From contig CAWGXL010000011.1 in the NCBI GenBank assembly GCA_963826535.1, forward strand, positions 320,809 to 384,808: DNA of 64,000 bases, read 5' to 3'. The notes below the pieces were generated by a model. It made no database searches. It had not been told where the DNA came from and was given only the letters and a program-made list of their open reading frames with translations. Source of the stretch: an uncultured bacterium. Lineage in GTDB: Bacteria; Patescibacteriota; Microgenomatia; Levybacterales; UBA12049. This document shows positions 5,217 through 55,232 of the stretch, in pieces (positions within the stretch are counted from its first letter, which is position 1; every line of letters begins with the position of its first letter). The translations under genes were made by a program, and so were the position numbers.

Positions 5217-5934
5217 ATCAAAAGAGACTTTACTTAGACTAAATGATATACATGTTCATTATGGAGGCGTGAGAGCGCTTGAGGGTGTGTCTATTTCCAT
5301 AGACACAGGCGAGGTTGTTGCATTGATGGGGCCTAATGGGGCGGGGAAATCTACAATTCTTAAAACAATATTTGGACTTGCACCAATAGAATCGGGAGAA
5401 GTGCAATGGGCGGGACATGCGTTTGTGCCTGTATCACACGACGTTGTGCAGATGGGAATTTCATTTGTGCCTCAGGGGAGACGGGTTTTTCGGCATCTCA
5501 CTGTTTATGAAAATCTTGAAATAGGAGGATGGATTATCAAAGATTCTAAACTGAGAAAAAAACGCACTGAAGATGTGCTTGGGATTTTCCCGGCACTTGG
5601 TGCAAAAATTAGATTAAAGTCTGGCGCTCTTTCAGGTGGCCAACAGCAAATGCTGGCAATAGCCCGAGGGCTTATGACTGATCCAAAGGTGCTTCTACTT
5701 GATGAGCCGTCCCTTGGTCTTGCTCCAAAAATTGTCAAAGAAGTTTTCACTAAAATTAAGGAGATAAACGCGCGACGGAAAATGGCAATTATTGTGGTGG
5801 AGCATAATCTGAAGTCACTTCTCGGAATCGCAAATCGGGCATATGTTTTGGATAAAGGGAAAATTTATACAGAAGGGCTGCCAGGAGATATTATTAAAAA
5901 TAAGGTGCTGGAAAAAGTATTTTTGTCAGCTTAA
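5203..5934 (+). CDS. ABC transporter ATP-binding protein, LivF-like
   Basis: Walker [10 protein letters not shown], signature [15 protein letters not shown], Walker [13 protein letters not shown]. Confidence 0.85.
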
Positions 5935-7008
5935 ATAGTCTTTGAGTTTGTTGCCGCGGGAAGGATGGCGGAGTTTGCGCAGCGCCTTGGCTTCGATTTG
6001 GCGGATACGTTCCCGGGTTACTTTGAATTCTTTTCCTACTTCTTCCAGTGTCCGCGATCTGCCGTCGTCAAGACCGAAGCGGAGTTCCAGGACTTTTTTT
6101 TCTCTTTCGGTTAATGTAGAAAGCACTTGATTTACCTGTTCTTTTAACAGTTCACGTGAGGCAGAGTCAAAGAGAGTCGGAGCTGAGGAGTCATGGATGA
6201 AGTCTCCTAAACGGCTGTCTTCTTCGTCGCCGACCGGCGCTTCTAAGGAGGCCGGGTTTTGGGATATTTTGATAATCTCAAGAGCTTTCTCCGGCTCTAT
6301 GCCCAGGACTTTGGCGACTTCTTCAGGAGTGGGTTCACGACCTAATTCCTGCATGAGTTTTCTTTGACTGCGGAGGAATCTATTAATATTCTCTACCATA
6401 TGGACAGGGATACGGATAGTACGTGCCTGGTCAGCAATTGCACGAGTCACCGATTGACGTATCCACCAGGTGGCATAGGTTGAAAATTTGAATCCCCGTC
6501 TCCAATCGTACTTTTCAACTGCCCGGATGAGACCTTGATTGCCCTCTTGAATTAAATCAAGCAAAGATAGGCCGCGGCCAATGTATTTCTTGGCAATCGA
6601 CACAACCAGACGAAGGTTGGAATTAATTAGTTTCTTTTTGGCTTCATAATCCCCTTTTTCAACTCGTTGAGCCAGATTGATCTCCTCTTCAAAGGTTAAC
6701 AGCGGAATACGTCCAATTTCTTTGAGGTACATTCTTACGGGATCGGAGATGGATCCTTCGGTAAGCATAGTTAAGGCTTCTAATTCTTTTTTGAGGTCTT
6801 CGATCGGTTTTTGTACTTCCTGTTCTTGTACGACGCTTTCAAACACGTCGATGTTGGATTTCATTAACTTGTCGTACAAACTATCAAGTTCTTCGATGTG
6901 TTCTTCGGGTTTGGTAAAAATACCTAAAATTTCGTCTTGGGTGATGTAGCCACGCTTTTTAGCGGACGTGACAATATCCGTCAGAAACGGTGATAATTTT
7001 ACCGGCAT
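5926..7008 (-). CDS. rpoD: RNA polymerase sigma-70 factor RpoD/SigA
   Basis: Region 1.2/2 motifs [12 protein letters not shown] and IRIPVHMVE, a region 4 HTH, and an [23 protein letters not shown]-terminus. Confidence 0.9.
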
Positions 7009-7068
7009 AGATGTATTTTAGCACAGGACGGTTGATATGCAAGCAGAGCATTTATACCCCAAGTTAGT

Positions 7069-8154
7069 TTAGGGCGCACCATTATAGATGGCTGTAATTT
7101 CAGAAAGTGAGAGAGCCCTGTTGTAGATACGAACGTCGTCGATCTGGCCGTCCATTTCCGAATCTCCGGTGTCGTCTGCTCCGATCCTGAGCGGTTGTGT
7201 ATGCGCGAGACTCGCGGAACTCGCGGAGAGGCTGCCCGCGAACACGCCGTCTTGGTACAGAAAGATCGTCGAGCCTTGGCGCATGCCCACGACATGGTGC
7301 CAGGCGCCGTCGTTAATCGGGGTTGGCCCAGTCACCTGGTAGAAGACGTTACTGACCCATACTTCAAACATGGGCTTGTAGCTAGAAACAGAATCCATGA
7401 CCAGATCCCAACTCGTGCGGATCCCCCCGGGATTAGCGAGCTTGTGCACAATTGCCGGATATGAGTTGCTCGCCTCTGTCGATTTCACCCACGCCGAGAT
7501 CGTAAAGTTCTGACTGGCGCCGAAGTTGATGGACGAATGGTTCGGCACGCTGACATAATCACCACTCCCATGCCCATCAAAATCCAGTGCCTGGCCGAGT
7601 TTGCCGGTTGACCAGGTTGGAGTGCCTGTGAGGGTACCGTTGTTGCCAGTGCCAGAGGAATCGGCTGCTGTCATCCCTGATCCTTCATTAAATTTCCAGT
7701 GGCCAACCCTGCCGGGGATGGGAGTTGGAGTTGGAGTGGGTGTGAGAGTTGAGGTTGGAGTTGGAGTTGGTATGGTCAAAGTTTCATTCCAGCTATTCAT
7801 TACAATACCATTTGTCCGGTTAAAGGCAACTTGCACTGTCCGGTTGAAAGAGGTTGCCGTAGTTGTTGCGGTTATTGTCCAGTTATTGCCAGCTTTTGCC
7901 ACAGTTATAATACAGGTGCCTTCCGGACGGGTTATATTTCCTCCGTTATATGAGTTGCTTGCCCATGCTTTCAAAAGCGCATCTTCGGCACACCCTTCCA
8001 CTAACTGTAAATTCTCCTCGCCTTTATTCATTGCTAAAGAAGTTTGTGCTTCTCCTATTGCCAAGAGCGAGACGGTAGACGCGGTTGAAAGGGCAACTGC
8101 TGAAATGATAAGGACGGTTACTAATGCAATAAATCCACTTGGTTGGTTATTCAT
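7069..8154 (-). CDS. Prepilin-like protein with C-terminal LamG/concanavalin-A-like lectin domain (cassette gene D)
   Basis: N-terminal [15 protein letters not shown] hydrophobic prepilin-like segment, a TPTPTP linker, then GHWKFNEGSG...DGQIDDVRIYNRALS (Laminin_G_3-like jelly-roll). First 139 aa are identical to 8211-9635. Confidence 0.6.
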   Translation of the reverse strand: MNNQPSGFIALVTVLIISAVALSTASTVSLLAIGEAQTSLAMNKGEENLQLVEGCAEDALLKAWASNSYNGGNITRPEGTCIITVAKAGNNWTITATTTATSFNRTVQVAFNRTNGIVMNSWNETLTIPTPTPTSTLTPTPTPTPIPGRVGHWKFNEGSGMTAADSSGTGNNGTLTGTPTWSTGKLGQALDFDGHGSGDYVSVPNHSSINFGASQNFTISAWVKSTEASNSYPAIVHKLANPGGIRTSWDLVMDSVSSYKPMFEVWVSNVFYQVTGPTPINDGAWHHVVGMRQGSTIFLYQDGVFAGSLSASSASLAHTQPLRIGADDTGDSEMDGQIDDVRIYNRALSLSEITAIYNGAP

Positions 8155-8204
8155 ATTTAATTACTTCGTATCTCTGCACTTCCTTCAATTGTTGTGGATT
8201 CCTT
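7738..8204. repeat. 467-bp direct repeat, copy 1 (shared 5' coding module plus 50 nt upstream of the pilin-LamG genes)
   Basis: Direct comparison with 9219-9685 shows near-100% identity. I saw one mismatch. Confidence 0.9.
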
Positions 8205-8210
8205 TTTACC

Positions 8211-9635
8211 TTATTGAGCACCATTGTAGATGGCAGTGATTTCAGAACCTGAGAGCACCCTGTTGTAAACGCGGACGTCGTCTATCTTACCTTTGAACCA
8301 AAGGGAATTATACAATGTTCCTCCGATAGACTTGTTATTTGCGGAGTCATTAAACACATTAGTGCTATTCCCGACTGTTTGATAAGCTACTTCCGCATTA
8401 TTAACGTAGATACGAATACCGGTTCCGGTTCCGGTTCCGTTCCAGGTTACAGTGATGAATTGCCATGTGTTCAACTGCACTACGTTGTTCACCGACCTTC
8501 TTAAGAGGTTAGACCCGGAGACGTCCACGGCAAATTCAAGCGGATAATTCGGATATATCATAAGGTCATACCCATCAGCGGTGCCGGCCGGAGTATCGGA
8601 ATTATACAGTTTTATCTCTGTGGATCCACCGGAATTGGCGTAGATCCACATGGCGATTGTCACGGGTGTAACATTATCAAGCGAAGAACCTGACCCAACA
8701 TTTACCACATCATTCACGCCGTCAAAAGAGAGAGCCTGACCGAATCTGCCTGTTGTCCAAGTGGGTCCGCCGGTGAGGGCGCCTGTGTTGCCATTTCCGC
8801 TTGAGTCGAAGGCTTGGCTCCCCGAACCTTCATCAAATTTCCAGTGGCCACGCCTGCCGGGGATGGGAGTGGGGGTAGGAGTCGGGGCTATAGTCGGGGT
8901 AGGAGTTCTTGTCGGTGTTGGAGGAATTGGAGTAGGAGTTCTTGTTGGAGTCGGAGTTGGAGGAATTGGAGTAGGAGTTCTTGTTGGAGTCGGAGTTGGA
9001 GGAATTGGAGTAGGAGTTCTTGTTGGAGTCGGAGTTGGAGGAACGGGAGTTGGAGTTCTTGTCGGTGTTGGAGGGATTGGAGTGGGAGTTCTTGTTGGAG
9101 TCGGTGGGACGGGAGTGGGGGTGAGAGTGGGAGTTGGGGTTGGAGTCGGAGGAATTGGAGTGGGAGTTCTTGTTGGTGTTGGAGGGATAGGAGTGGGAGT
9201 TGGAGTTGGGGTGGGAGTGGGTGTGAGAGTTGAGGTGGGAGTTGGAGTTGGTATGGTCAAAGTTTCATTCCAGCTATTCATTACAATACCATTTGTCCGG
9301 TTAAAGGCAACTTGCACTGTCCGGTTGAAAGAGGTTGCCGTAGTTGTTGCGGTTATTGTCCAGTTATTGCCAGCTTTTGCCACAGTTATAATACAGGTGC
9401 CTTCCGGACGGGTTATATTTCCTCCGTTATATGAGTTGCTTGCCCATGCTTTCAAAAGCGCATCTTCGGCACACCCTTCCACTAACTGTAAATTCTCCTC
9501 GCCTTTATTCATTGCTAAAGAAGTTTGTGCTTCTCCTATTGCCAAGAGCGAGACGGTAGACGCGGTTGAAAGGGCAACTGCTGAAATGATAAGGACGGTT
9601 ACTAATGCAATAAATCCACTTGGTTGGTTATTCAT
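8211..9635 (-). CDS. Prepilin-like protein with long Thr-Pro repeat linker and C-terminal LamG-like lectin domain (cassette gene C)
   Basis: N-terminal module identical to gene D, then about 100 aa of ([13 protein letters not shown])n, then a [23 protein letters not shown]...[13 protein letters not shown] LamG-type domain that differs from gene D. Confidence 0.6.
8880..9230. repeat. Tandem 39/45-nt minisatellite encoding a Thr-Pro-rich linker
   Basis: The unit ggaggaattggagtaggagttcttgttggagtcggagtt and close variants repeat about 8 times inside 8211-9635. Confidence 0.8.
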
Positions 9636-9685
9636 ATTTAATTACTTCGTATCTCTGCACTTCCTTCAATTGTTGTGGATTCCTT
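9219..9685. repeat. 467-bp direct repeat, copy 2
   Basis: Matches 7738-8204. Confidence 0.9.
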
Positions 9686-10186
9686 ATATTCCTGTCTGAG
9701 TCCAGCGCCAGGATAATTTGCTGCAAGGGTAAAGACAAATTGAATATTTTTGGTTTCATTGAATTCCGAGGAGTAGTTAGTAAAGTTTAAAGAGGAAAAG
9801 GTAGTGTTTTTTGAGTTTATACTTATGGGACTTCCTGTACCTTGTTGTATGACTATATTTCCGGAGTTGAGAGTAATAATTGTGGGGTTTGTTGCCGGGT
9901 TTTTTGTGGCCAGAGATATCTGTGTTGGGGTAAAATAGTTAATATTGTCGGCATTTCTGATTTCATACTTCAGCCGTTCACTTACATAGCGGGCTTGTGA
10001 AAATACTTCCTGTTGGGTGGCGCTTTTTGCGCCGCCTCCTATCACATTCCAGGCAAATGGAATCAGGGTTGTCATCATAATAATAATTGTAGCGCTATAT
10101 ATAAGTAGTTCAAGTAAAGTAAAACCTGCCTGCAAATGAGTGTGGTTTCCAGTTTTTAATTTACATGTTTGAGTTTTCTGATTCAT
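9638..10186 (-). CDS. Pseudopilin / minor pilin with prepilin-type N-terminal cleavage-methylation motif
   Basis: [13 protein letters not shown] is a class III signal (G|FTLLE) followed by a hydrophobic helix. Start placed at the internal ATG (MNQKT) to avoid overlap with the upstream gene. Confidence 0.65.
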
Positions 10187-10202
10187 AGTCTGTTTTTTCC
10201 TA

Positions 10203-11351
10203 CTACCCACCATTGTAAATGGTTTGGATTTCGGAGGGTGAGAGCGCACGGTTGTAGATACGGAAGTCGTCGAGTGAACCGACAAGCATGGTGCCGGGGA
10301 AAGCGGGATTGGTTCCTCCGGCGCGAAAAGATGCTGTGCTTGTATTAACGATATTGAAAAGCATAGTTATGTTTTTAACATTACTGCCATCAATGTAGTA
10401 CCTGCCATTCGGATAATCCGCTGTAAACGCGACATGATGCCATTGGTTGTCGGCAAGAGAGATACCTGCTGTAGCGTAAGAGGATGCAGTTGTGCCATTG
10501 CCATGCGAAAAATAGAGGTCTGCATTTGTGGTAAGAGACAAATCATAGTTTCTATTAATGACGCCTGCAACGTGGCCTATGATCTTCATCTCGTTTTTTG
10601 TCGTATTCGTAGTTTTGACCCAGGCGGCAATCGTCAAATCACCGTTTATGTGAAAGGTTGAGGGGCTACCGAAATGAACAAAATCATCCACTCCGTCAAA
10701 GAGCAAGGCCTGACCGATTCTGCCGGTTGTCCAAGCCGGGCCGTTGGTGAGGGTGCCTGTGTTGCCATTTCCGCTTGAGTCGAAGGCTTGGCTCCCCGAA
10801 CCTTCATCAAATTTCCAGTGGCCAACCGGAGTAGGCAGTCTCCAATTTGTGAGGTAGGTAATTAAGACTACCGAAGAGTTACGGGTCGGGCTGGCTTTCC
10901 AAGAGACTGTTGAAGTAATTTTTTTAGAGTTCGGGTCAACTGTTCCTCCGCTTGCGACTATGTTGCCGCTTCCATCTCTTCGCACATCTGCAATTGAAAT
11001 TACCCGTGTATATTTGTTAAATGTATTATTTGCACCGCTTAATGTCCACAGATTTTCAGGGCTGCGGGTAAGTCCGATAGATGCGGTATTGATTAATTTT
11101 TCATATGCCTGGTTTCTAATAGACCGGACTGCCTCAATCCCTTCGGAGGCATATTGATTTGCAATAGTTTCTTCCGATCCGGTCCTATTTGCGTCAAATC
11201 CTTGTAAGATGACAAAGATAACGCCGCTTGAGAAGATAAGAAAAACTGCCGCAGTAAAAATGATTTCTATGACTGAGAAACCTGAGGTCCGGAGTAGCCG
11301 ACCGGATTTTAGCGTAGAGAAGAATTTTGAAATGTGACGATTACTTTTCAT
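10203..11351 (-). CDS. Prepilin-like protein with C-terminal LamG-like lectin domain (cassette gene B)
   Basis: TSGFSVIEIIFTAAVFL prepilin-like N-terminus. C-terminal [34 protein letters not shown]...LDDFRIYNRALSPSEIQTIYNGG is about 75% identical to the C-terminus of gene A. Start set at the internal ATG (MKSNRH). Confidence 0.6.
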   Translation of the reverse strand: MKSNRHISKFFSTLKSGRLLRTSGFSVIEIIFTAAVFLIFSSGVIFVILQGFDANRTGSEETIANQYASEGIEAVRSIRNQAYEKLINTASIGLTRSPENLWTLSGANNTFNKYTRVISIADVRRDGSGNIVASGGTVDPNSKKITSTVSWKASPTRNSSVVLITYLTNWRLPTPVGHWKFDEGSGSQAFDSSGNGNTGTLTNGPAWTTGRIGQALLFDGVDDFVHFGSPSTFHINGDLTIAAWVKTTNTTKNEMKIIGHVAGVINRNYDLSLTTNADLYFSHGNGTTASSYATAGISLADNQWHHVAFTADYPNGRYYIDGSNVKNITMLFNIVNTSTASFRAGGTNPAFPGTMLVGSLDDFRIYNRALSPSEIQTIYNGG

Positions 11352-11364
11352 AATGCAAATTGTC

Positions 11365-12498
11365 CTACGGCGCACCATTGTAGATAGTTATGATTTCGGA
11401 GGGTGAGAGCGCCCGGTTGTAAATGCGAAGGTCGTCGAGTGGACCTACAAGCATAGTGCCGGGGAAGGCAGGATTGCTTCCTCCGGTGCGATAGTGGTAT
11501 TGTGTGATTGTATTAACGATATCGAAAGTCATAGTTATGTTTTTAACATTAGTGCCATCAATGTAGTACTTGCCGTTCGGATAATCCGCCGTAAACGCGA
11601 CATGATGCCATTGGTTGTCGGCAAGGGAGATGCCTGCGGTAGCATACCTGATAGATGATGTTCCATTGCCATGCTGGAAAGTTAGATCTGCATTTAAACC
11701 AAGATGTAATTGATAGTTTCTATTAATGACGCCTGTTGTTTGAGTAATGATAGTCATTTCGTTTTTTGTCGTATTCGTAGTTTTGACCCATGCGGCAATC
11801 GTCAAATCACCGTTTATGTGAAAAGTTGAGGGGCTACCCAAATCAATCTCGTCATCTACCCCATCAAATATTAGGGCTTGGCCGTATTTACCGGTTGTCC
11901 AAGCTGGGCCATTGTGGAGGACGCCAGTATTGCCGCTCGCGCTTGAGTCGAAGGCTTGGTTTCCTGATCCTTCATCCAGTTTCCAATGTCCAACTTTGCC
12001 GGGGAGCGGGGTGGGGGTGGGGGTGGTGGCTGGAGTATTTGCCGGATTGGCTATTCCCTGACTCGCAACTGTTATTGTTTTAATTGTATTGTTGCCTGTA
12101 ATCGTAATCGTCGCAGCCGCACTTGGCGTGCCGGTCATTTTGGCAAAAATTATATCCGTGAAACCGCTAACCGAGATATTGGGATTGAGAGTGAGCTTCT
12201 GGTCAAATGCAATATTGCGAGATGCAAATGAACTTCCTTGAAATAAAATAATACTGCCGGCCTGGTTATGCACTCCCCATTGGCTATTTTGTTTTCCTAT
12301 CATCGCATTGGTTTGCGCTTTGCGGATGTGGTTAATAAGCTGATCATATGTATTTCCTGCTGCATTTTGGGTAAAGAAGTTTGAATAAAAGGGAACCGAA
12401 GTTATGCCAATAACTGTGATAAGAGCGAAAACGATCAGCAGCTCAACGAGCGTAAATCCATTTTGAAATTTTACACCTTTTAATTTGTAATATCCCAT
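11365..12498 (-). CDS. Type IV pilin-like protein with C-terminal LamG-like lectin domain (cassette gene A)
   Basis: Canonical prepilin motif KFQNGFTLVELLIVFALI, then a linker TPATTPTPTP, then a LamG-like domain paralogous to gene B. Confidence 0.65.
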   Translation of the reverse strand: MGYYKLKGVKFQNGFTLVELLIVFALITVIGITSVPFYSNFFTQNAAGNTYDQLINHIRKAQTNAMIGKQNSQWGVHNQAGSIILFQGSSFASRNIAFDQKLTLNPNISVSGFTDIIFAKMTGTPSAAATITITGNNTIKTITVASQGIANPANTPATTPTPTPLPGKVGHWKLDEGSGNQAFDSSASGNTGVLHNGPAWTTGKYGQALIFDGVDDEIDLGSPSTFHINGDLTIAAWVKTTNTTKNEMTIITQTTGVINRNYQLHLGLNADLTFQHGNGTSSIRYATAGISLADNQWHHVAFTADYPNGKYYIDGTNVKNITMTFDIVNTITQYHYRTGGSNPAFPGTMLVGPLDDLRIYNRALSPSEIITIYNGAP

Positions 12499-12559
12499 TT
12501 ACATTATTAAGTGTAGCAAATTTTCCGTTCCTTCTGTAGGGCATTGATGTTTTAATGCT

Positions 12560-13636
12560 TTATTTACTGATAGTACCTGTTAATTCGTAGATTGGCGAAA
12601 TAATCGCTAAGGCGACAAATGCAACAATCCCTCCAATAATAAAAAGCATTATCGGCTCAAGCAGGGTTGAGATATTAGCGGTTGCATCGTCTACTTCATC
12701 CTCAAAGAAGTTGCTCAGGTAAATCAATGTTTCGTCTAGACGCCCTGTTTTTTCTCCTACGGCAATCATTTTGGTTACAATAAGAGGTATCTTTCCATAG
12801 TGCCCCTGTTCAAGTTCTTCGGATAATGATTTTCCTTTTTCAACAGCAGTAAGCATGCGTAACATATATACTTTGAATACTGTATTTGACGTTATTTTTA
12901 CTTCTATTGTAAGTCCTGCGGTAATAGGTAAACCACTTTCGAGCATAATACCTAAATTGCGACAAAATGAAGCTAATTCAGCATTTTGTATTATCTTACC
13001 AAAAACCGGTATATTTAAAAGCATCCTGTCAATATATGGCTTTACCTGGTTTTGTGTGATTAAAAAACGAAGAAAAACCAGTAATCCGATAAAACCTGCA
13101 AGGACCAAGACTCCGAAATTTTGCATAATAGAAGCAAAAGAAAGAAGGATTTGGGTTGAAAGCGGCAGTTTTACGTCAAAGCCCTTAAAAAGCTCTACAA
13201 GTTGTGGTAAAACAAAAACGCTAATGCCTATACCCACCAGCCCGGCTGCAGTCAAGACAATAGCCGGATACATCATTGCTCCTTTGACTTTTTTGCGAAA
13301 GGCATATTCTTTTGCAAGTTGATTGCTTAGATATACAAGACTTTTATCCAGGGTTCCCGAGGTCTCCCCTACTTCTATAATACTGGTATAAAATGAATCA
13401 AAAACTTTCGGATGTTTTGCCAGGGCTGCATTTAAAGATTTTCCGTTTTTAATGTCACTCACCATATCCTGCATAATTTTTTTCAACACCTTTGACTCTG
13501 ATTGCGCAACTAGAATCTGAAGTGCTTCCAGGATGGTAATACTGGTTGCCGCCATCATGCTTAAATGTTTAGTAAAAAGGAGTTTATCAATAAATGAAAC
13601 ACGCGGGAACAAATGTAGTTGGGCAGATGATTTCAT
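12560..13636 (-). CDS. pilC: Type IV pilus assembly platform protein PilC (GspF family)
   Basis: Two T2SSF-type repeats and three TM segments. Lies directly downstream of the PilB ATPase gene. Confidence 0.8.
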   Translation of the reverse strand: MKSSAQLHLFPRVSFIDKLLFTKHLSMMAATSITILEALQILVAQSESKVLKKIMQDMVSDIKNGKSLNAALAKHPKVFDSFYTSIIEVGETSGTLDKSLVYLSNQLAKEYAFRKKVKGAMMYPAIVLTAAGLVGIGISVFVLPQLVELFKGFDVKLPLSTQILLSFASIMQNFGVLVLAGFIGLLVFLRFLITQNQVKPYIDRMLLNIPVFGKIIQNAELASFCRNLGIMLESGLPITAGLTIEVKITSNTVFKVYMLRMLTAVEKGKSLSEELEQGHYGKIPLIVTKMIAVGEKTGRLDETLIYLSNFFEDEVDDATANISTLLEPIMLFIIGGIVAFVALAIISPIYELTGTISK

Positions 13637-13640
13637 GTTT

Positions 13641-15320
13641 TTATTCTTTAGTGACGCGTAATATTTCTTCTATCGTTGTTTCACCTTGTTTTACTTTTTC
13701 CAGTCCATCTTCAAGCATTGCCCTCATACCGTTTTTCTGAGCAATTTTGTGAATAGTTGTGGCATCGCTTTTACTAATAATTGCCTGCTTTATTTCATCA
13801 TCGATTATCATCGCTTCATAAATGCCTACTCTTCCTTCATAAGCACTATTATGACAAATTTCACATCCTTTACCTTTATACAGGCGAATTAAATCGTCCG
13901 TACCCAAGACTTTATCGACCAGAGGCTGCGGTAAGTAACGCAATAGCTTTGTACGCGATACTTCCTCGCTCACCCGGCATACCGCATGAATTTTTCTTAC
14001 CAGCCTTTGCGCTACAACTAAGGTGACTGTGGACGCAATAAGAAACGGTTCAATTCCCATTTCAAAAAGCCTGGGGATTGCTGTTGCGGCATCATTGGTA
14101 TGCAAAGTTGAAAGTACTAAATGACCAGTCATTGCCGAGTTTATAGCTATATCCGCTGTTTCCTTGTCCCGGATCTCTCCGACTAATATGATGTTTGGAT
14201 CCTGCCGGAGGATGGTTCGCAAACCTGTCGCAAATGTCACATTCTCCTTCACGTTTACCTGCATCTGATTTATACCTTCTACGTCATATTCTATCGGATC
14301 TTCAATTGTCATAATATTGACATCACGGTTATTCAAGAGTTTCAAGATTGCATACATTGTTGTTGTTTTTCCCGATCCTGTCGGTCCAGTTGCCAATATT
14401 GCTCCGTAGGGTTTTTTGTATGCGGATTCTACTTTCAATAAATCATCCTGTGAAATGCCAAGCGTTAAGAGAGATATCTGACGGGCCTTATCTGATAACA
14501 GCCTCATGACGATTTTCTCGCCTTTTCTTACCGGAGCTGTTGACACACGAATATCAAGCTTGTTCTGTTCAAACGTAAACTCTATCTTTCCATCCTGGGG
14601 TACCTGATTCTCGTCGGTGCGCAGCCTTGCCAACACTTTTATCCTGCGCACAATTTCCGGATAAATTGTCATTGGCAGGAGAATGACGTCATGCAGTATA
14701 CCATCTATGCGGAATCTGACTATTGCTACGCTTTCCTGCGGCTCCAGGTGTATGTCAGATGCGCTATTGTTATTGGCATAGGTTACAATCGTTTCGACAA
14801 TCTTAATGATGGGCGGCTCACTTACTTGCTGGCCTTTGCCGGTTACCTGCTTAAGGCTCTCTTTCATAATCGTTTCAAACGCTGTGCCGATATCCTGAAT
14901 ATACAGCGTAAGCGTCTGGTCAATGTCCTTATGGGTTGCGAAATACCGGATTAAGGTTAACCCGAGTTTTCTTTGCAGAAAATCAATTATTGTCGTATTG
15001 TTCGGGTTTTCCATGGCCAGATGGAGACCCTGCTGATCTTTTTTAAAGGCAATTATGCGCTGCTGTTTGGCAATGATTTCGGGGATGATCGTCAAAATCT
15101 CCTGAGGGATAACAATATTTGTAAGCGTGACAAGGGGAACGCTTAGAATTTGGGCGATAAGTTTTCCTAAATCGGTATCGGAGATGAGGTTTTTATCGAG
15201 CAGGACATCGCCCAAGAGTATTTTTCGGCTGTCAGCATAGCTTAAAGCATCCTGCAGCTGCCCTTCATCTATAACCTGTAATTCTTTCAACGCGTTGTAG
15301 AGTGCTTGATTATTGTACAT
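13641..15320 (-). CDS. pilB: Type IV pilus assembly ATPase PilB (GspE family)
   Basis: Walker A ATGPTGSGKTTT, Asp box, His box, tetracysteine CEICHNSAYEGRVGIYE, and an N-terminal GSPII-type domain. Confidence 0.9.
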   Translation of the reverse strand: MYNNQALYNALKELQVIDEGQLQDALSYADSRKILLGDVLLDKNLISDTDLGKLIAQILSVPLVTLTNIVIPQEILTIIPEIIAKQQRIIAFKKDQQGLHLAMENPNNTTIIDFLQRKLGLTLIRYFATHKDIDQTLTLYIQDIGTAFETIMKESLKQVTGKGQQVSEPPIIKIVETIVTYANNNSASDIHLEPQESVAIVRFRIDGILHDVILLPMTIYPEIVRRIKVLARLRTDENQVPQDGKIEFTFEQNKLDIRVSTAPVRKGEKIVMRLLSDKARQISLLTLGISQDDLLKVESAYKKPYGAILATGPTGSGKTTTMYAILKLLNNRDVNIMTIEDPIEYDVEGINQMQVNVKENVTFATGLRTILRQDPNIILVGEIRDKETADIAINSAMTGHLVLSTLHTNDAATAIPRLFEMGIEPFLIASTVTLVVAQRLVRKIHAVCRVSEEVSRTKLLRYLPQPLVDKVLGTDDLIRLYKGKGCEICHNSAYEGRVGIYEAMIIDDEIKQAIISKSDATTIHKIAQKNGMRAMLEDGLEKVKQGETTIEEILRVTKE

Positions 15321-15711
15321 TTTCCTCCTTTGCTACAACCGGCGCCGGCTCAAGGAGCGCATTAATTTTACTCAGCACATTATCCAGAGAAGTATCACTT
15401 TTAACTATATAATCTGCCGCACCCAGCTTCATGCTTTTTTCGATATCTTCTTTTTGGCCAAGATTAGATGCCACGATAACAGGAATATTTTTCCATTGCG
15501 GATTTCTCTTCAATTGTGTGAGTGTCGCAAACCCGTCTTTATCCGGCATAATTAAATCAAGCAAAATAAGATCAGGGGTAAAAGTCTCCAAGCGCAATAA
15601 CGCTTCCGATCCATCGAAAGCAAGTTGCACTTCAAAGCCGGCTTTTGTCAGCTTTATTCTATAAGCACTCGATAAAAATTTATCATCTTCTACTACTAAA
15701 ATCTTTTTCAT
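15310..15711 (-). CDS. Single-domain response regulator (CheY-like receiver)
   Basis: VVEDD...DLILLDLIMPDKDGF receiver motifs with no output domain. Its 3' end overlaps the pilB start by 11 nt. Confidence 0.8.
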   Translation of the reverse strand: MKKILVVEDDKFLSSAYRIKLTKAGFEVQLAFDGSEALLRLETFTPDLILLDLIMPDKDGFATLTQLKRNPQWKNIPVIVASNLGQKEDIEKSMKLGAADYIVKSDTSLDNVLSKINALLEPAPVVAKEENVQ

Positions 15712-15784
15712 GCGGTTTTATAGTTATACATAAAAACGGACCACTCATTCAAATGATATGTACCCATCTTAACTTCCCTCACCT

Positions 15785-17290
15785 TTACCTGTCAACAGTA
15801 GCTTGCCGTATATCTTCCAATAGCGGCAGACTAAACCAAAATGTGGTTCCTTTTTTTTCAACGCTTTCAAACCAGACTTTTCCTTTTAACGACTCGATAA
15901 TTATTTTAACCAGATACAAACCGAGTCCTGAACCATCAGTTTCTACTTTTACAACATTATCCGCTCTAAAAAATTTCCGGAATATTTTATCCTGTTGATC
16001 TTTCGGGATACCATATCCGTTGTCGGTGATTTGAGAAATGATTTCATTAAATTTTTTTGAAATGGATAGAGATATTTCTCCACCTGAGGGAGTATACTTA
16101 CTGGCATTTGTCAAAAGATTTAAATAAACCTGCCGGACCAGTTGGGGGTCAATAATAATTTTCGGCAAATCCTGTTCAATGCTGATCGTGAGTTTTTGCT
16201 TTTTTTCATTACACTTTATTTCCATTTCTTTTACAGTAGTTTCAACCAATTCTTTTAAGTCCGTAGATATAGGAGTAATCACAATTTTACCTGATTCAAT
16301 ACGAGAAATATTCAAGAGCGCATTAACCAGTTCAATCATGCGTTGGGTTGAATCACTTATGCTGTGGCCCAACTCCTTTTGTTCAGTATTTAGGTCGCCT
16401 ACGTTTCCACCTAAGAGAATTTCTATAAACCATTTAATTGCAGCAAGGGGAGTCCGGAGTTGATGAGAAGCAAGGGAGATAAATTCTGTTTTCATACGGT
16501 CAACCTCCTGTTCTTTGGTGATATCGCGGATAATTGTAATTGAGCCAATGGTTGCGGTTTTATGATTCAGGTGGTCATGCAGAATCACGGGGGTTGAGGT
16601 CATATTGATTAATACTTTTTCGTCGTTTTTCTTTACAAGAATAAATTTTCCCATGATCTTCTCGCCTTTTTGCAATGCAACAGATACCGGGCTATTCTCT
16701 TTGGAAATATGATTGGCTTCTTCATCATATACTGCTATCAAATCCATCAAATCTTTTTCTTTATAGGCAACCGGGTCAATATTCATTAGTTTTTGCGCGT
16801 TTGAATTCATTAGCAAGACATAACCTGTATTGTCCGTTGCGACAAGGGCTTCGCCTATGCTTTCAAAAATAGCATCATCTTTTGCCCGCTGCGCTTCAAG
16901 CTCCTCTACTTTCTGGGCAAGTTCTAAAGTTTTTGCTTTAACTGCGTCTTCTAACCCCAGTTGGGCAATTTGCAATTTATCGGCCATGGCGTTAAAAGCT
17001 TGGGCAAGTTGACCAATCTCATCCTTTGAATTACTTTGTATTCTTTTACTTAAATTTCCATCTGCAATTTGCATGGCTGTTTTTGTAAGCTCCTGTACCG
17101 GTTTAATTATTTGTAGGATAAAAAGCAACAGAATGCCGTCAATAAAGATTGTGAAGGGTATAACTACTATAACTAACTCAGGGTTATTCACTGTAACGCG
17201 GGAGAAAATCAGTCCGAAAATAATGACTCCAAGGATCATCCCAGCCAAGCCAAATGACATGACAAGAAGAAATTTATAGGTCAGCTGCAT
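15785..17290 (-). CDS. Sensor histidine kinase (2 TM, HAMP, PAS-like, HisKA, HATPase_c)
   Basis: H-box SHQLRTPL, N-box LLTNASKYT, G-boxes DNGYGIP and GSGLGLYLV. Start chosen at ATG 17288-17290; the track ORF begins at an upstream GTG (17314). Confidence 0.8.
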   Translation of the reverse strand: MQLTYKFLLVMSFGLAGMILGVIIFGLIFSRVTVNNPELVIVVIPFTIFIDGILLLFILQIIKPVQELTKTAMQIADGNLSKRIQSNSKDEIGQLAQAFNAMADKLQIAQLGLEDAVKAKTLELAQKVEELEAQRAKDDAIFESIGEALVATDNTGYVLLMNSNAQKLMNIDPVAYKEKDLMDLIAVYDEEANHISKENSPVSVALQKGEKIMGKFILVKKNDEKVLINMTSTPVILHDHLNHKTATIGSITIIRDITKEQEVDRMKTEFISLASHQLRTPLAAIKWFIEILLGGNVGDLNTEQKELGHSISDSTQRMIELVNALLNISRIESGKIVITPISTDLKELVETTVKEMEIKCNEKKQKLTISIEQDLPKIIIDPQLVRQVYLNLLTNASKYTPSGGEISLSISKKFNEIISQITDNGYGIPKDQQDKIFRKFFRADNVVKVETDGSGLGLYLVKIIIESLKGKVWFESVEKKGTTFWFSLPLLEDIRQATVDR

Positions 17291-17296
17291 AATACC

Positions 17297-17312
17297 ATTG
17301 TAGCAAATATTC
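17297..17312 (-). promoter_or_regulatory. Putative extended -10 promoter element (TGcTACAAT) upstream of the histidine kinase gene
   Basis: The 16-mer attgtagcaaatattc (minus strand GAATATTTGCTACAAT) also occurs at 17969-17984 upstream of pilin 1. Confidence 0.35.
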
Positions 17313-17373
17313 ACGTCAAAAAAATAAAATTAATATAAATTCTAGGGAAGGGAGAACTGGATATAATTTTTAT

Positions 17374-17943
17374 TTATCTGGCTTGGGTTATGGGTACTGT
17401 TCCTTCTCCGCCGCAGGCGCTTACCTGGACTATATTATTCGCATCTACTGATATTGCATAACCTGTTTTTGTTGCATCAAGAGTTATTGGCGTTACACCG
17501 CCTGTTGTTCCTTTTGGATCAATCGGTATGGTTTTCAAATATGGGGTGAGGGGGGCTGTCAAGTTTACGCATGCCGTTGCAGCAATTTGACAAGTTGGCG
17601 TGGCTGTAGTCCAAGCTGCAGGGACATTAGCTGCAACGAGATTGCATCCAGCACCTGCCGTGCCAAGTTGTGTTATTGCCATGCCTGTTGTAAGCCCCGC
17701 GGGGAGAGCACCTTTATTGTCGACAACAAATATGTGAATTGCAGTTAAAATTGTCTCGATATCTGATGTCCTCCTTGCCTCGCGCGCATCCCGTGTTCTC
17801 TTTACAGGATTTAAGGCGACAAATACGGTAACTGCGAGGGCGGAAATAATGACAATAACAATTAACAATTCAATAAGCGTAAAGCCTGATTGGGAAAGAA
17901 TGTAACTTTTTTTATTTTTTAACCGGGCAGTAAATTTAAACAT
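17374..17943 (-). CDS. Type IV major pilin (prepilin-type N-terminal methylation motif), paralog 1
   Basis: SQSGFTLIELLIVIVIISALAVTVFVALNP is a class III signal plus alpha1 helix. About 190 aa, with a C-terminal Cys pair. Start at the MFKF ATG; the further-upstream ATG lies beyond the putative -10. Confidence 0.8.
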   Translation of the reverse strand: MFKFTARLKNKKSYILSQSGFTLIELLIVIVIISALAVTVFVALNPVKRTRDAREARRTSDIETILTAIHIFVVDNKGALPAGLTTGMAITQLGTAGAGCNLVAANVPAAWTTATPTCQIAATACVNLTAPLTPYLKTIPIDPKGTTGGVTPITLDATKTGYAISVDANNIVQVSACGGEGTVPITQAR

Positions 17944-17968
17944 ATAAAAAAGTACACTTAATAAATCT

Positions 17969-17984
17969 ATTGTAGCAAATATTC
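17969..17984 (-). promoter_or_regulatory. Putative extended -10 promoter element upstream of pilin paralog 1 (same 16-mer as 17297-17312)
   Basis: Exact 16-nt repeat containing TACAAT on the minus strand. Confidence 0.35.
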
Positions 17985-18084
17985 TCATAAAAAATACAAT
18001 AGGTTATTTCACACAATTCGTAGTAAGAAAACATTGGATTATATAAAGGGAATTATGTAAAGAGATACAGGCTAAAATTTATAA

Positions 18085-18663
18085 TTATCTAGATTGATTT
18101 ATCGGGGTTGTTCCTTCTCCGCCGCAGGCAGTCACCTGGACTATATTATTCGCATCTACTGATACTGCGAACCCAGTTTTTGTTGCATCAAGAGTTATTG
18201 GCGTTACACCGCTTGTTGCTCCTTTTGGATCAATTGGTATGGTTTTCAAATACGTAACAAGCGGGGCTGTCAAGTTTACGCATGCCGTTGCAGCAATTTG
18301 ACAAGTTGGCGTGGCTGTAGTCCAAGCTGCAGGGACATTAGCTGCAACGAGATTGCATCCAGCACCTGCCGTGCCAAGTTGTGTTATTGCCATGCCTGTT
18401 GTAAGTCCAGTTGGTAGAGCACCTTTATTGTCAACAATATATTGGTGGATTGCAGTCAAAATAGTCTCCACATCTGAGGTTCTCCTGGCTTCACGAGCAT
18501 CCAGAGTTCGTTTTATCGGATTTAAGGCGACAAATACGGTAACTGCGAGGGCGGAAATAATGACAATAACAATTAACAATTCAATAAGCGTAAAACCTGA
18601 TTGTAAAAGTGCAGAGTTTTTTTTATTTCTTGTTCGGGCAATAAATTTATTAATATTTATCAT
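18085..18663 (-). CDS. Type IV major pilin, paralog 2 (tandem duplicate of 17374-17943)
   Basis: LQSGFTLIELLIVIVIISALAVTVFVALNP. Mature region about 90% identical to paralog 1. Confidence 0.8.
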   Translation of the reverse strand: MININKFIARTRNKKNSALLQSGFTLIELLIVIVIISALAVTVFVALNPIKRTLDAREARRTSDVETILTAIHQYIVDNKGALPTGLTTGMAITQLGTAGAGCNLVAANVPAAWTTATPTCQIAATACVNLTAPLVTYLKTIPIDPKGATSGVTPITLDATKTGFAVSVDANNIVQVTACGGEGTTPINQSR

Positions 18664-18686
18664 GGGTAAAAAAGAGCTCTAATTTA

Positions 18687-18716
18687 TTTATAATGCAATT
18701 GCATTTCTTTTGTCAA
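18687..18716 (-). promoter_or_regulatory. Sigma-70-like promoter (TTGACA, about 17 nt spacer, TATAAA) with a perfect 14-nt palindrome AATGCAATTGCATT in the spacer, upstream of pilin paralog 2
   Basis: Read on the minus strand: ttgacaaaagaaatgcaattgcattataaa, ending about 20 nt before the ATG. Confidence 0.4.
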
Positions 18717-18756
18717 TAAGCAGAAACGTCTGAAGAACGAACGCCGTGGTAAATAA

Positions 18757-21522: not shown

Positions 21523-21963
21523 TTAATAAATACTATCTATTTCTTCAACCAGCAGTTTTTTTAGGGATTCTGTTTTTAGATTTATCAGTTTTTCGTCATT
21601 CGTTATAAATGTTTTTGAGCCTGATATAATTGCTGTTGCTATTTGAAGAGAGTCGGGTGTGCGAAGATGCGGATTTTCTCTTCTTAGACTTGCAGCTTTT
21701 TCCATTATTTCCCAGTTGACATCATATACGGTAAGGTTGGGAGTTTTTTGAAAAAACCTGGCAAAAGCCAATAATTTATCTTGATCGCGCTCGAGCTTAG
21801 GGGCGGATAGAACTTCAAGAGTAGTGATAATCGAAGTAACGGCGCTTAAGTCTCCCTTTTCTATTTGTTTAAATAGTCGATTGACCTTTTTTATATACCG
21901 GCTATCTTCCTCGAAAAGATAGATAAACACCATTGAGTCGAGATAAACTTGGATTTTGTTCAT
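21523..21963 (-). CDS. vapC: PIN-domain ribonuclease toxin VapC
   Basis: Acidic PIN residues in VYLDSMVFIY, TLEV and TPDSLQIATA. Its ATG overlaps the vapB stop as ATGA. Confidence 0.7.
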   Translation of the reverse strand: MNKIQVYLDSMVFIYLFEEDSRYIKKVNRLFKQIEKGDLSAVTSIITTLEVLSAPKLERDQDKLLAFARFFQKTPNLTVYDVNWEIMEKAASLRRENPHLRTPDSLQIATAIISGSKTFITNDEKLINLKTESLKKLLVEEIDSIY

Positions 21964-22208
21964 TTTTTGGACCAATGATTTCTTTCTTTGTCAATGTATT
22001 CCTCGCCCCTTCCCCAAACACCCCGGCCCAAACCTGTAACCTTTTTAACCCAGCTTTCCGGCTCGAGCTCAAGTATAGCCTTAGGCACTGTTCCCTTATT
22101 TTCAACGGACAAGAGCAGTTTGCTTCCAGGCTTTAGTCCGAGTTTTTTTCTAGCACGGCTTGGTATAACTACTTGTCCTTGTGAGGATAAAATTAAAGTG
22201 TAAAGCAT
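21960..22208 (-). CDS. vapB: AbrB/SpoVT-family antitoxin VapB
   Basis: SQGQVVIPSRARKKLGLKPGSKL swapped-hairpin motif. 82 aa, immediately upstream of and overlapping the PIN gene. Confidence 0.65.
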   Translation of the reverse strand: MLYTLILSSQGQVVIPSRARKKLGLKPGSKLLLSVENKGTVPKAILELEPESWVKKVTGLGRGVWGRGEEYIDKERNHWSKK

Positions 22209-34309: not shown

Positions 34310-34948
34310 CTAAAAGTCAATATTAAGCTTTTCTGAGGCGAGGCGGCGGGATTCTTGGCGAAAAAAGTCTTTTACTTCTTCCCATTTGACCGGCAGGAGC
34401 ATTTCCGGCATGTCATCATCTTCCGCATCGGCAAAATAGCTTAATCCTTTAATAAGTTGATACAATTTGTCATCCAGAGATCCATATTTTTCTTCGTAAA
34501 AATTAAACATCTGATCAATAGTAAATTCTTTCGCCAACATGAAAACATCAATAAAATCTCTTTTAACTCCCCTGTCGCTTATTGCATGTATTTTCATTGC
34601 GGCAATGTCTTTTTTGCCAATAAGATTAATGCCTTCGAAGGTTATAAGGGGGTCAATAATTTTATATTTATAATAAAAAATGCTGAAGCGAGTTTTGCTA
34701 ATCCGTCCTAAAACGGATGCCCAGGCTCTTTGGTCTTCTTGAAATAAGGACAATTGTGAGAGTTCTGTGGCTACCAAGTTTTCATCAAATTTTTCTTTTG
34801 TAAAAAAATCCAAATCGACTGACATTCTGTGTCCTAATTGCAGAGCAAGAGCTGTTCCTCCTGCAAGATAAGCTCGCTGCACTGTCGGTATGGTTGCTGC
34901 TAATTTGATAGCCCAAAGGGTATCCGGGAGTAAGGTTTTTGTAAACAT
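34310..34948 (-). CDS. Nucleotidyltransferase, AbiEii/DUF1814-like toxin
   Basis: GGTALALQLGHRMSVDLDFF matches the GGTAL..R.S.D.D NTase motif of AbiEii-type proteins. Confidence 0.5.
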   Translation of the reverse strand: MFTKTLLPDTLWAIKLAATIPTVQRAYLAGGTALALQLGHRMSVDLDFFTKEKFDENLVATELSQLSLFQEDQRAWASVLGRISKTRFSIFYYKYKIIDPLITFEGINLIGKKDIAAMKIHAISDRGVKRDFIDVFMLAKEFTIDQMFNFYEEKYGSLDDKLYQLIKGLSYFADAEDDDMPEMLLPVKWEEVKDFFRQESRRLASEKLNIDF

Positions 34949-54522: not shown

Positions 54523-54523
54523 G

Positions 54524-55186: not shown

Positions 55187-55232
55187 AGTTTATGACGTAA
55201 GACGTAAGACGTAAGACGTAAGAATTTTCATT

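Follow-up and report, generated by a model that had tools for sequence, protein, structure and literature searches.

How bacteria of the CPR/Patescibacteria recognize and hold their partner cells is largely an open question, and the leading candidates at present are type IV pili whose minor pilins bear accessory domains (PMC11623550). The window (the whole stretch of 64,000 nucleotides analysed, from an uncultured member of the Patescibacteriota) contains a pilus locus that raises this question in a specific form: which part of the pilus do its mosaic genes encode, and how was the mosaic made? Our preferred answer, which we consider likely, is that the locus is the minor-pilin gene set (tip or priming complex) of a type IV pilus of a small-genome, CPR/Patescibacteria-type bacterium, probably from the Microgenomates group, with LamG modules displayed at the tip, and that it was built by grafting and intra-operon recombination.

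Five pilin genes follow pilB and pilC on the minus strand, in the order A, B, E, C, D. These minor pilin genes form one strand block with pilB, pilC and two candidate major pilin genes. The features are as follows.

18085-18663 and 17374-17988, minus strand: two paralogous candidate major pilin genes, 85% identical to each other.
15785-17314, minus strand: histidine kinase (HAMP/PAS/HisKA/HATPase_c), directly upstream of pilB together with the response regulator.
15310-15711, minus strand: response regulator (Response_reg), directly upstream of pilB.
13641-15320, minus strand: pilB, assembly ATPase (Pfam T2SSE, 6e-128, plus MshEN), 74% identical to PilB of the relative L039.
12560-13636, minus strand: pilC, platform protein (Pfam T2SSF, 4e-54), 65% identical to L039.
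11365-12498, minus strand: gene A, minor pilin position 1, ORF of 377 aa; ComGD/GspH-like module 12049-12498, short Thr-Pro linker, LamG 11365-11991.
10203-11378, minus strand: gene B, minor pilin position 2, ORF of 391 aa; carrier module 10824-11378, linker nearly absent, LamG 10203-10823.
9638-10285, minus strand: gene E, minor pilin position 3, without LamG; G/FTLLE motif, N_methyl 0.004.
8211-9635, minus strand: gene C, minor pilin position 4, without Glu5, cap-type, ORF of 474 aa; pilin module 9258-9635, Thr-Pro linker of ~136 aa 8850-9257, LamG 8211-8849.
7069-8154, minus strand: gene D, duplicated position-4 pilin, ORF of 361 aa; pilin module 7777-8154, linker 7705-7776, LamG 7069-7704, different from that of C and with high GC3.

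The true start of gene B is probably Met10, at 11351, and gene E probably starts at Met34, at 10186. The candidate major pilins match N_methyl at ~1e-6 and GspG/ComGC weakly, and carry a G/FTLIE motif. No prepilin peptidase (Peptidase_A24) was found among the window ORFs scanned. In L038 and L039, response regulators likewise precede pilB. A preliminary description of this DNA had counted four consecutive fusion genes. All four exist as minus-strand ORFs, but gene E, which it missed, lies between B and C.

All of A, B, E, C and D begin with a short leader that ends in Gly, followed by ~20 hydrophobic residues. The N-terminal motifs are G/FTLVE in A, G/FSVIE in B, G/FTLLE in E and G/FIALV in C and D. 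Glu at mature position 5 is thus present in A, B and E and absent in C and D (FIALV), so the class III signal peptide of C and D is non-canonical; the pilin-type N-terminus originally assigned to all four fusion proteins is there in each, with this qualification for two of them. The N_methyl HMM matched A (1.9e-5) and E (0.004) only. B, C and D, which it missed, were called pilins by motif, fold and orthology. The N-terminal module of gene A also matched ComGD at 1e-13, below the cutoff, and gave weak PDB matches to PilA/MshA. In the AlphaFold model of D, residues 11-125 have pLDDT >90, and helix 6-65 and five strands are followed by a beta-sandwich. The model of B (pLDDT 84.7) has helix 36-88 and a beta-sheet, again followed by a beta-sandwich. 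A long N-terminal helix on an antiparallel beta-sheet was found in both. When a modular pilin is defined by the IPR012902 motif plus a non-pilus C-terminal domain, A is one in the strict sense (N_methyl plus PF13385), and the precomputed annotation says the same of P0114; B, C and D are modular pilins by architecture, with N-termini that the N_methyl HMM misses.

The C-terminal domains were confirmed as LamG. Laminin_G_3 of Pfam matched A, B, C and D with 101, 101, 74.5 and 116 bits (E values 9e-29, 7e-29, 1.3e-20 and 1.7e-33), that is 74.5-116 bits against a cutoff of 27.6, whereas gene E has no LamG. Two of the checks suggested in the preliminary description, a Pfam search and structure prediction, agreed: PF13385 was found in all four proteins and a jelly-roll-type beta-sandwich in the AlphaFold models of B and D. 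Foldseek searches with these two models gave E values of 1e-10 to 1e-14, with TMt 0.76-0.77 for 5hon_A (0.77 for B). Pfam, AlphaFold and Foldseek together support A, B, C and D as fusions of a pilin and a LamG/ConA-like jelly-roll. The structural neighbours of the LamG modules were the AbnA arabinan-binding domain (carbohydrate-binding domain 4), neurotoxin Hc and the trans-sialidase lectin domain, and by analogy with these the modules would probably bind glycans. LamG_3 domains are not lectins in every case.

Thr-Pro linkers had been described for all four fusions and are present in A (~19 aa), D (~24 aa) and C (~136 aa). Gene B is essentially without one ('NWRLPTPVGHWK'). The linker of gene C is built from a 39-nt tandem repeat at 8911-9184.

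Searches of relatives by tblastn found a conserved CPR operon of pilB, pilC and minor-pilin positions 1-4. Its position 1 is a ComGD/GspH-like protein of ~148 aa, position 2 a large carrier whose C-terminal module varies, position 3 a protein of ~169 aa, and position 4 a protein of ~125 aa that has no Glu5 and almost always stands alone. Gene A (aa 7-151) is 48-55% identical to the position-1 pilins of L039/L041, and gene B (aa 4-180) is 58-59% identical to the N-terminus of the relatives' position-2 proteins of 608-841 aa. Gene E is 59-83% identical to position-3 proteins of L039/L041/L050, and gene C (aa 1-124) is 60-70% identical to the relatives' stand-alone proteins of 122-125 aa. Judged from these alignments, A, B, E and C occupy the four minor-pilin positions conserved in CPR pilus operons, a correspondence that the preliminary description missed.

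All homologs of the C/D pilin module (112/112) are between 80 and 179 aa long. The position-4 family as a whole lacks Glu5; its consensus is GYIALxTV, and Gly-1 is invariant in 54 homologs. Glu5 is likewise absent from cap or initiator subunits, among them GspK, PilX and S. sanguinis PilA. The C-terminal module of position-2 homologs is of at least four kinds: a ~600 aa unknown type, an LVIVD beta-propeller, DUF2341+LamG and a short form. In other CPR lineages LamG occurs on position 1 (L041, L002), position 2 (P0150) and position 4 (L043). Here it is on three of the four positions: 1 (A), 2 (B) and 4 (C).

Pieces of sequence are shared among the genes in the following tracts.

9214-9685: repeat copy 1; last 50 nt of gene E, C pilin module and linker start, in the ancestral context.
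7733-8204: repeat copy 2; its first 50 nt are in the C-D spacer.
10755-10824: B tract; 70 nt at the start of the B LamG, identical to C.
8781-8850: C partner tract; 70 nt at the start of the C LamG, identical to B.

The C/D repeat had been described as 467 bp of 100% identity including 50 nt upstream. The upstream 50 nt are part of it, but it is 472 nt long with one mismatch: 448 nt are exact (9238-9685 = 7757-8204), followed by the mismatch and another 23 identical nt. The mismatch is synonymous (CCC/CCA, codon 133), and the first 145 aa of the C and D proteins are identical. In copy 1, the 50 nt upstream of the C ATG encode 13 residues of the E C-terminus. This 3′ end of gene E is duplicated upstream of D, where the copy begins 6 nt after the C stop codon. 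Because the first 50 nt of copy 2 sit in the C-D spacer, D is the derived copy. Beyond the repeat, the LamG modules of C and D are only 40% identical and are indeed different, as first noted. The D LamG has a GC3 of 0.64 (z=4.5), outside all 172 windows from other genes, and its best outside matches (41-44%) are as close to it as its paralogs in the operon, or closer.

Genes A and B have the opposite pattern. On unrelated pilin modules they carry LamG modules with identities of 79.6% (aa) and 81% (nt), somewhat above the earlier estimate of ~75%; dS for the pair is ~0.4 and dN/dS ~0.3-0.4. The stretch shared by B and C at the start of the lectin module is exactly identical, over 70 nt rather than 75 (longest-run permutation p<2e-4). 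Gene A, otherwise the closest paralog of B, differs at ~12 sites within it. Informative sites group B with C at 28/36 of the first sites and 20/229 of the remaining ones (max chi2 100, permutation p<1e-4), and B-C dS along the LamG is 0, then 0.6, then saturated. We interpret the 70-nt tract as a probable gene-conversion tract within a looser C-like zone of ~145 nt. Phylogenetic incongruence and the dS contrasts support the original view that the shuffled modules point to recombination. Read from one genome, the mosaic shows at least three intra-operon exchange events.

On the observed architecture, folds, carrier orthology and recombination footprints the following model can be built. The sequence records four events. 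Position 4 was tandemly duplicated to give D, by duplication or conversion of the 50 nt of E, the position-4 pilin module and the linker start (dS ~0). A 70-nt conversion between the LamG of B and C (dS = 0), inside the older C-like zone of ~145 nt, is another event, and an older copying of one LamG module between A and B (dS ~0.4) a further one. The D LamG is of separate, probably foreign, origin (GC3 0.64). In the assembled pilus the pilin modules, by their N-terminal helices, would hold the proteins in the tip complex, and the LamG modules would be displayed at the tip on linkers of near zero to ~136 residues. Tip location and subunit order are suggested by the Glu5 logic and by analogy with other systems. 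Neither C nor D has Glu5, and their pilin modules are identical; they may therefore be alternative caps, so that pili would differ in their terminal LamG module and in reach. Such a tip would be multivalent and would probably bind glycans, serving to attach the cell to a partner or a surface, and the exchanges may have an adaptive role. DNA uptake or motility could also be the role of the system, with the LamG modules secondary.

Known variation systems were compared with the locus. A diversity-generating retroelement target was rejected: the A-B mismatch spectrum is not adenine-specific, and there is no reverse transcriptase among the ORFs scanned. A shufflon (Rci/sfx) was also rejected, with no relevant inverted repeats in 5800-19000, co-oriented genes and no recombinase, Rci-type or other dedicated, among the ORFs scanned. 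Antigenic variation by pilE/pilS in Neisseria acts on the major pilin through promoterless silent cassettes and a dedicated G4-dependent mechanism. It likewise makes mosaic pilins from short gene-conversion tracts between paralogs, but here the genes are expressed-looking minor pilins and few events are visible; each of the four LamG genes is a complete ORF with its own start codon and pilin N-terminus, there are no silent cassettes, and variation of this type was rejected. The PilV shufflon of the IncI plasmids R64 and TP114 (PMC9045228) also gives a minor pilin a constant N-terminal part and alternative C-terminal adhesin parts that set partner specificity. There, however, Rci inverts segments at sfx repeats within one gene, whereas the variants here are separate, co-oriented, complete genes.

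A functional analogue of either system might still operate, with LamG cassettes often exchanged between pilin carriers so that partner specificity varies in the population. Thr-Pro linkers and conserved boundaries (10-residue motif, DDxRIYNRALS) would then be the recombination substrates. The two footprints with zero synonymous divergence (472 nt C/D, 70 nt B/C) fit this reading, as do the breakpoints, which codon alignment placed in the linker and at the LamG module start, the 70-100% nt identity at both module ends in every gene pair, and the ruvABC genes nearby in the window. We nevertheless think it unlikely. The modules number only four and all copies are full ORFs, with no inverted repeats or silent cassettes and no dedicated recombinase among the ORFs scanned; the dS and dN/dS of the A-B LamG pair are those of ordinary paralog evolution, and sporadic gene conversion among tandem paralogs is generic. 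Its strongest form, a standing recombination system in which linker and boundary motifs are portable recombination sites and lectin modules are swapped repeatedly among the carriers and also with LamG genes at other sites or from other cells, is doubtful to the same degree. If true, the population of this episymbiont-type bacterium would have many tip-lectin combinations and be able to change its partner or host range; a CPR chromosome would then carry an equivalent of the PilV shufflon that needs no recombinase. The collections searched yielded no strain-level relatives.

The repeats themselves raise the question of an assembly artefact, in which two strain alleles of the position-4 gene, with C-type and D-type LamG, were stitched together one behind the other and the mosaic tracts arose where sequences were wrongly joined. 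The source is probably an uncultured organism, and assembly is difficult for exact repeats of 448 nt and for a 39-nt tandem array. However, C and D have no common 3′ flank, as two alleles in a bubble should. Upstream of D, the copy starts exactly 6 nt past the C stop and carries the E 3′ end, as expected of a tandem duplication product. The 70 nt common to B and C are fewer than a read covers and keep the frame inside genes that otherwise diverge, and one 894,453 bp contig, the scale of a complete or near-complete CPR genome, is recorded as carrying proteins A, B and D. We regard an artefact as very improbable. Somewhat less remote, but still improbable, is that the genes encode pseudopilins of a secretion or competence (Com/T2SS-like) machine whose LamG modules handle substrate or DNA/cell wall and do not attach partners. 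The A N-module is best against ComGD, E is weakly ComGE and the major pilins weakly GspG/ComGC; the operon order is comG-like, and natural competence is reported for Saccharibacteria (PMC10187176). Yet all NCBIfam scores are far under their cutoffs, ConA-like modules displayed on long linkers suit adhesion better, and the TM7x T4P-2 pilus contributed to host binding while its mutants had no significant change in competence (PMC11623550). The two roles are not mutually exclusive.

The preliminary description did not recognize lectin-tipped pilin paralogs with swapped modules as a described system, but lectin-tipped pilins have been reported (PMC8179133, PMC9934059, PMC11623550). A pilin with PF13385 is a listed common "modular pilin" architecture, PF13385 fused to IPR012902 being among the 15 most frequent (Raynaud et al. 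2021, PMC8179133). PilC of S. sanguinis, a minor pilin whose lectin module is ConA-like, has a solved structure, binds glycans and was modelled in a PilABC tip complex (Shahin et al. 2023, PMC9934059). It shares with the proteins here the layout of N-terminal pilin module, linker and ConA-like/LamG module. In both loci the genes adjoin pilB, pilC and two major pilins ~85% identical, one small minor pilin lacks Glu5, and the minor-pilin set includes more than one modular pilin. In S. sanguinis, however, the modules are vWA and lectin, whereas here the same domain family is on 3/4 positions, the Glu5-less subunit itself bears a module and is duplicated, and there are one ~136 aa Thr-Pro linker and clear intra-operon exchange footprints.

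Lectin-like minor pilins are also reported in Saccharibacteria, where TM7x PilX2, a minor pilin with an accessory domain, is needed for host binding (PMC11623550). As in this CPR type IV pilus, whose largest minor pilin has a C-terminal jelly-roll (PilX1) or beta-propeller (PilX2), the position-2 homologs found here include LVIVD beta-propeller forms. TM7x differs in having one accessory-domain pilin per locus, the PilX1 jelly-roll has no CD-Search match whereas the modules here are clear Laminin_G_3, and duplication or module exchange is not reported there.

The protein design, pilin plus lectin, is already known, and no new type of molecular machine comes to light in this locus. Its recombination footprints are unusually clear, and the arrangement is new: three LamG-bearing positions, a duplicated cap gene and at least three intra-operon exchange events. 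One operon shows how tips get built and rebuilt, with the same conserved carriers and different display modules per lineage; here three carriers took LamG, the cap gene doubled and sequence passed between the copies in short conversion tracts. The four LamG modules and the two putative alternative caps with very different linker lengths are testable targets. If population variants exist, the locus would be a natural example of domain-level evolution of pilus adhesins.

The LamG modules also resemble a subunit of a different filament. The model of the haloarchaeal Tat-fimbriae protein TafC (NCBIfam NF052521; PMC11821415) matches them over the whole length (~210 aa, E 1e-9 to 1e-15). Scores are 35-56 bits against a 410-bit cutoff and TafC is Tat-secreted, not a type IV pilin, so that the likeness is at the domain level only.

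The pilin-type genes are located in a single co-oriented block on the minus strand, from 5.9 to 18.7 kb, with the following features.

18085-18663, minus strand: candidate major pilin gene (G↓FTLIE)
17374-17988, minus strand: candidate major pilin gene, paralog (G↓FTLIE)
15785-17314, minus strand: histidine kinase
15310-15711, minus strand: response regulator
13641-15320, minus strand: pilB (T2SSE, 6e-128)
12560-13636, minus strand: pilC (T2SSF, 4e-54)
11365-12498, minus strand: A, 377 aa, mature N-terminus G↓FTLVE, LamG present
10203-11378, minus strand: B, 391 aa, mature N-terminus G↓FSVIE, LamG present
9638-10285, minus strand: E, ORF of 215 aa, mature N-terminus G↓FTLLE, LamG absent
8211-9635, minus strand: C, 474 aa, mature N-terminus G↓FIALV, LamG present
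7069-8154, minus strand: D, 361 aa, mature N-terminus G↓FIALV, LamG present
5926-7008, minus strand: rpoD, after the five pilin-type genes

The preliminary description listed four consecutive LamG genes. It overlooked E, which carries no LamG and intervenes, so A, B, C and D are not consecutive. Its assignment of a LamG domain to four C-termini was borne out by Pfam: Laminin_G_3 (PF13385) is found at the C-terminal end of A, B, C and D with 101, 101, 74.5 and 116 bits, respectively, all above the cutoff of 27.6. The proposed design of pilin plus jelly roll was also found in AlphaFold models of D and B. The model of D rests on a 67-sequence alignment. Its residues 11-125, with pLDDT above 90, adopt the pilin fold (a 60-residue helix, then five antiparallel strands); a low-confidence linker and a beta-sandwich come next. 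The model of B (mean pLDDT 84.7) has the same two modules. When compared with the PDB by Foldseek, the C-terminal modules of D and B matched ConA-like jelly rolls, including arabinan-binding domain 4 of AbnA (5hon_A, TMt 0.76-0.77, rmsd 3.3), the clostridial neurotoxin Hc N-domain and the trans-sialidase lectin domain; full models were used, and the LamG domain dominates the matches. A match of the LamG modules to TafC is domain-level similarity only, and we rejected a relationship to TafC. The N-terminus of A weakly matched ComGD and GspH models and also solved PilA and MshA chains.

The Thr-Pro-rich linker between the modules is about 19 aa in A, almost absent in B, about 24 aa in D and about 136 aa in C (window 8850-9257). 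In C the coding sequence of the linker consists of a 39-nt unit repeated in tandem about 7 times (79% matches), with a higher-order periodicity of 111 nt. This linker is likely a site of length variation, and is possibly O-glycosylated.

With the C/D pilin module alone as query, we obtained 112 homologs, every one 80-179 aa long, from genomes labelled Saccharimonadales, Gottesmanbacteria and Woesebacteria. Their genomic contexts, together with tblastn of the window proteins against those contexts, revealed a conserved operon in the order (response regulators), pilB, pilC, four minor-pilin positions and then the major pilin(s). The positions and their tblastn counterparts in the window are as follows.

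Position 1: about 148 aa in relatives, N_methyl motif; A residues 7-151, 48-55% identity
Position 2: 608-841 aa in relatives; B residues 4-180, 58-59% identity
Position 3: about 169 aa in relatives; E, up to 190 aa ending at residue 215, 59-83% identity
Position 4: 122-125 aa in relatives, without Glu5; C and D residues 1-124, 60-70% identity

Among the best position-2 matches is a protein from Levybacteria. These taxa place the organism in the CPR/Patescibacteria, probably within the Microgenomates group. The position-4 family profile gave no meaningful match among PDB sequences. Since the window genes map to positions 1-4, the cassette is the usual set of minor pilins, in which positions 1, 2 and 4 bear LamG and position 4 has been duplicated. 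The paralogous pair at 17374-17988 and 18085-18663 (85% identity, near-identical N-termini) are probably the major pilins, and resemble PilE1/PilE2 of S. sanguinis, which are also 85%-identical major pilins. This pair is located upstream of the histidine kinase/response regulator pair and pilB.

Position 2 is a natural carrier of variable modules: its homologs end in an LVIVD beta-propeller, in DUF2341+LamG (database protein P0150) or in a module of about 430 aa that has no annotation, or they are short. LamG grafting recurs independently in other lineages. DUF2341+LamG is found on position 1 of a relative's locus (L041), and a Dojkabacteria operon (L002) has LamG in the first minor pilin and also in a 910-aa pilin. 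In a third relative (L043, 8001-8878), a position-4 homolog of 62% identity runs, across overlapping ORFs or a possible frameshift at 8537, into DUF2341 and the start of LamG_3. Since this homolog adjoins a MazE/PIN pair rather than lying in a pilus operon, it may be an orphan fusion of cap pilin and adhesin. Position-4 fusions as in the window are rare: among the 112 homologs, no more than 2 have any C-terminal extension.

Four Patescibacteria MAG contigs (L007, L022, L015 and L026) carry LamG_3 domains or genes in long tandem series of 4 to 14 or more, a possible reservoir of LamG modules in CPR genomes. The database protein P0115 (JGI, 499 aa) has two LamG domains and an N-terminus that, judged by eye, is hydrophobic and signal-peptide-like. 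Its second LamG is 62% identical to the A/B LamG module; thus the A/B-type module is also found on non-pilin carriers. A scan of genome contigs with D returned only distant LamG matches (36% or less), and a scan of metagenome contigs with PilC returned relatives at 30-36% only. Look-ups for exact copies of D, PilC and B gave no match.

Comparison of A, B and C revealed a mosaic. As described before, A and B have different pilin modules (23% identity, unrelated) and similar LamG modules (79.6% identity), and B and C share an identical stretch at the start of the LamG module, which is 70 nt exact (10755-10824 = 8781-8850). In a codon alignment, B equals C at all sites, including synonymous ones, across the first 23 LamG codons. 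A differs from B at about 12 sites there, although it is the closest paralog of B elsewhere in the domain. B is grouped with C at 28 of the first 36 phylogenetically informative sites and at 20 of the remaining 229 (maximum chi-square 100, permutation p<1e-4). In codons 1-24, B and C have a dS of 0; it rises to 0.6 in the following 24 codons and then reaches saturation. A-B dS drops from 1.6 before the breakpoint to 0.39 after it. The LamG of B is therefore a chimera of a C-like 5′ end of about 145 nt and an A-like body. An A-B dN/dS of about 0.3-0.4 indicates purifying selection on both copies. The A/B LamG repeat (window 10182-10326 versus 11347-11491) does not stop at the two stop codons: it continues for about 20 nt, as far as the first bases of the following gene, and an ATGAA start is at the end of both copies. 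This hints that the LamG copy and the junction with the downstream gene moved as a unit.

C and D have identical N-terminal modules and different LamG modules, as the preliminary description noted. The exact identity covers 448 nt (9238-9685 = 7757-8204), followed by one synonymous mismatch and 23 more identical nt. The first 145 aa are identical, and the LamG modules are 39.6% identical. The identity begins 50 nt upstream of the ATG and ends within the Thr-Pro linker. Upstream of C, this 50-nt stretch is the 3′ end of gene E; upstream of D, it lies in the C-D spacer, from 6 nt past the C stop codon. Thus C is in the ancestral context and the 5′ part of D is a copy.

The LamG of D (7069-7704) has a GC3 of 0.64 compared with 0.39 for D's own pilin module, a break inside one gene. 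In 38 other genes, sampled as 172 windows of 200 codons, GC3 never exceeds 0.52 (z=4.5 for the D LamG). Its closest database relatives, from Gammaproteobacteria and Planctomycetes MAGs, are 41-44% identical, and its identity to the operon paralogs is no higher (37-40%). Divergence in situ from the LamG of C is unlikely, because at 40% identity the two are no closer than the D LamG is to LamG domains of other phyla (44%), and because the pilin modules have a dS of about 0 while GC3 jumps within the ORF. A separate origin of the D LamG is thus probable, and by its composition and relatives it is possibly foreign. That the arrangement is an assembly artefact is unlikely. A, B and D have database entries that place them on one contig of 894,453 bp, a length that fits a CPR genome that is complete or nearly so. 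Two collapsed alleles would have a common 3′ flank, which C and D do not have, and the C-D junction is structured as a tandem duplication predicts.

The scanned ORFs include no recombinase and no reverse transcriptase, relevant inverted repeats are absent from 5800-19000 and the A-B mismatches have no adenine bias; shufflon and DGR mechanisms are therefore excluded. Homologous recombination of the ordinary kind between tandem paralogs suffices for the exchange. The mosaic first reported stands, and its interpretation is supported in part: the recombination is borne out, the undescribed protein design is not. That lectin cassettes recombine frequently here and set the partner range is unlikely. 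The pilin-LamG architecture is already known. Raynaud et al. 2021 identified over 1,200 modular pilins, listed PF13385 with the pilin motif (a predicted carbohydrate-binding module) among the 15 most frequent architectures, and included several representatives from CPR bacteria. S. sanguinis has two modular minor pilins within one modelled tip complex. Because of these precedents, the protein design is not undescribed. A limited literature search found no description of one domain family on three of four conserved positions, of a Glu5-less cap gene duplicated with its module replaced, or of dated intra-operon conversion tracts. The locus is a clean, instructive case of CPR pilus adhesin-module evolution, not a new system class.

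By analogy with S. sanguinis PilABC and with the HIJK model, the four minor-pilin modules would assemble into a priming complex, which would come to lie at the tip of the pilus. Position 4 (C or D), which lacks Glu5, would enter first and sit on top, and the LamG modules of A, B and either C or D would then be displayed together. Since their pilin modules are identical, C and D should compete for one slot. This would yield two pilus types with different terminal LamG and different reach (linker of about 136 aa versus about 24 aa). Structural neighbours and two precedents suggest that the LamG modules may bind glycans: S. sanguinis PilC binds glycans (PMC9934059), and TM7x needs an accessory-domain minor pilin to bind its host, a binding that sugars inhibit (PMC11623550).

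Rfam gave no match in the window at gathering thresholds, and a promoter/terminator scan found fewer sites than in shuffled controls. Adjacent dnaA and dnaN genes are located at 47503-50396, so the region of the chromosomal replication origin is probably within the window. A PIN-domain protein and an AbiEii-type nucleotidyltransferase toxin (21523-21975 and 34310-34948, minus strand) are toxin-antitoxin or defence-type genes. On the minus strand, 52387-56474 encodes a 711-aa P-loop ATPase of the VirB4/TraG type together with a PrgI-family protein that bears a CarboxypepD_reg domain. This cluster resembles the type IV secretion genes of monoderm type that have been described in Patescibacteria.
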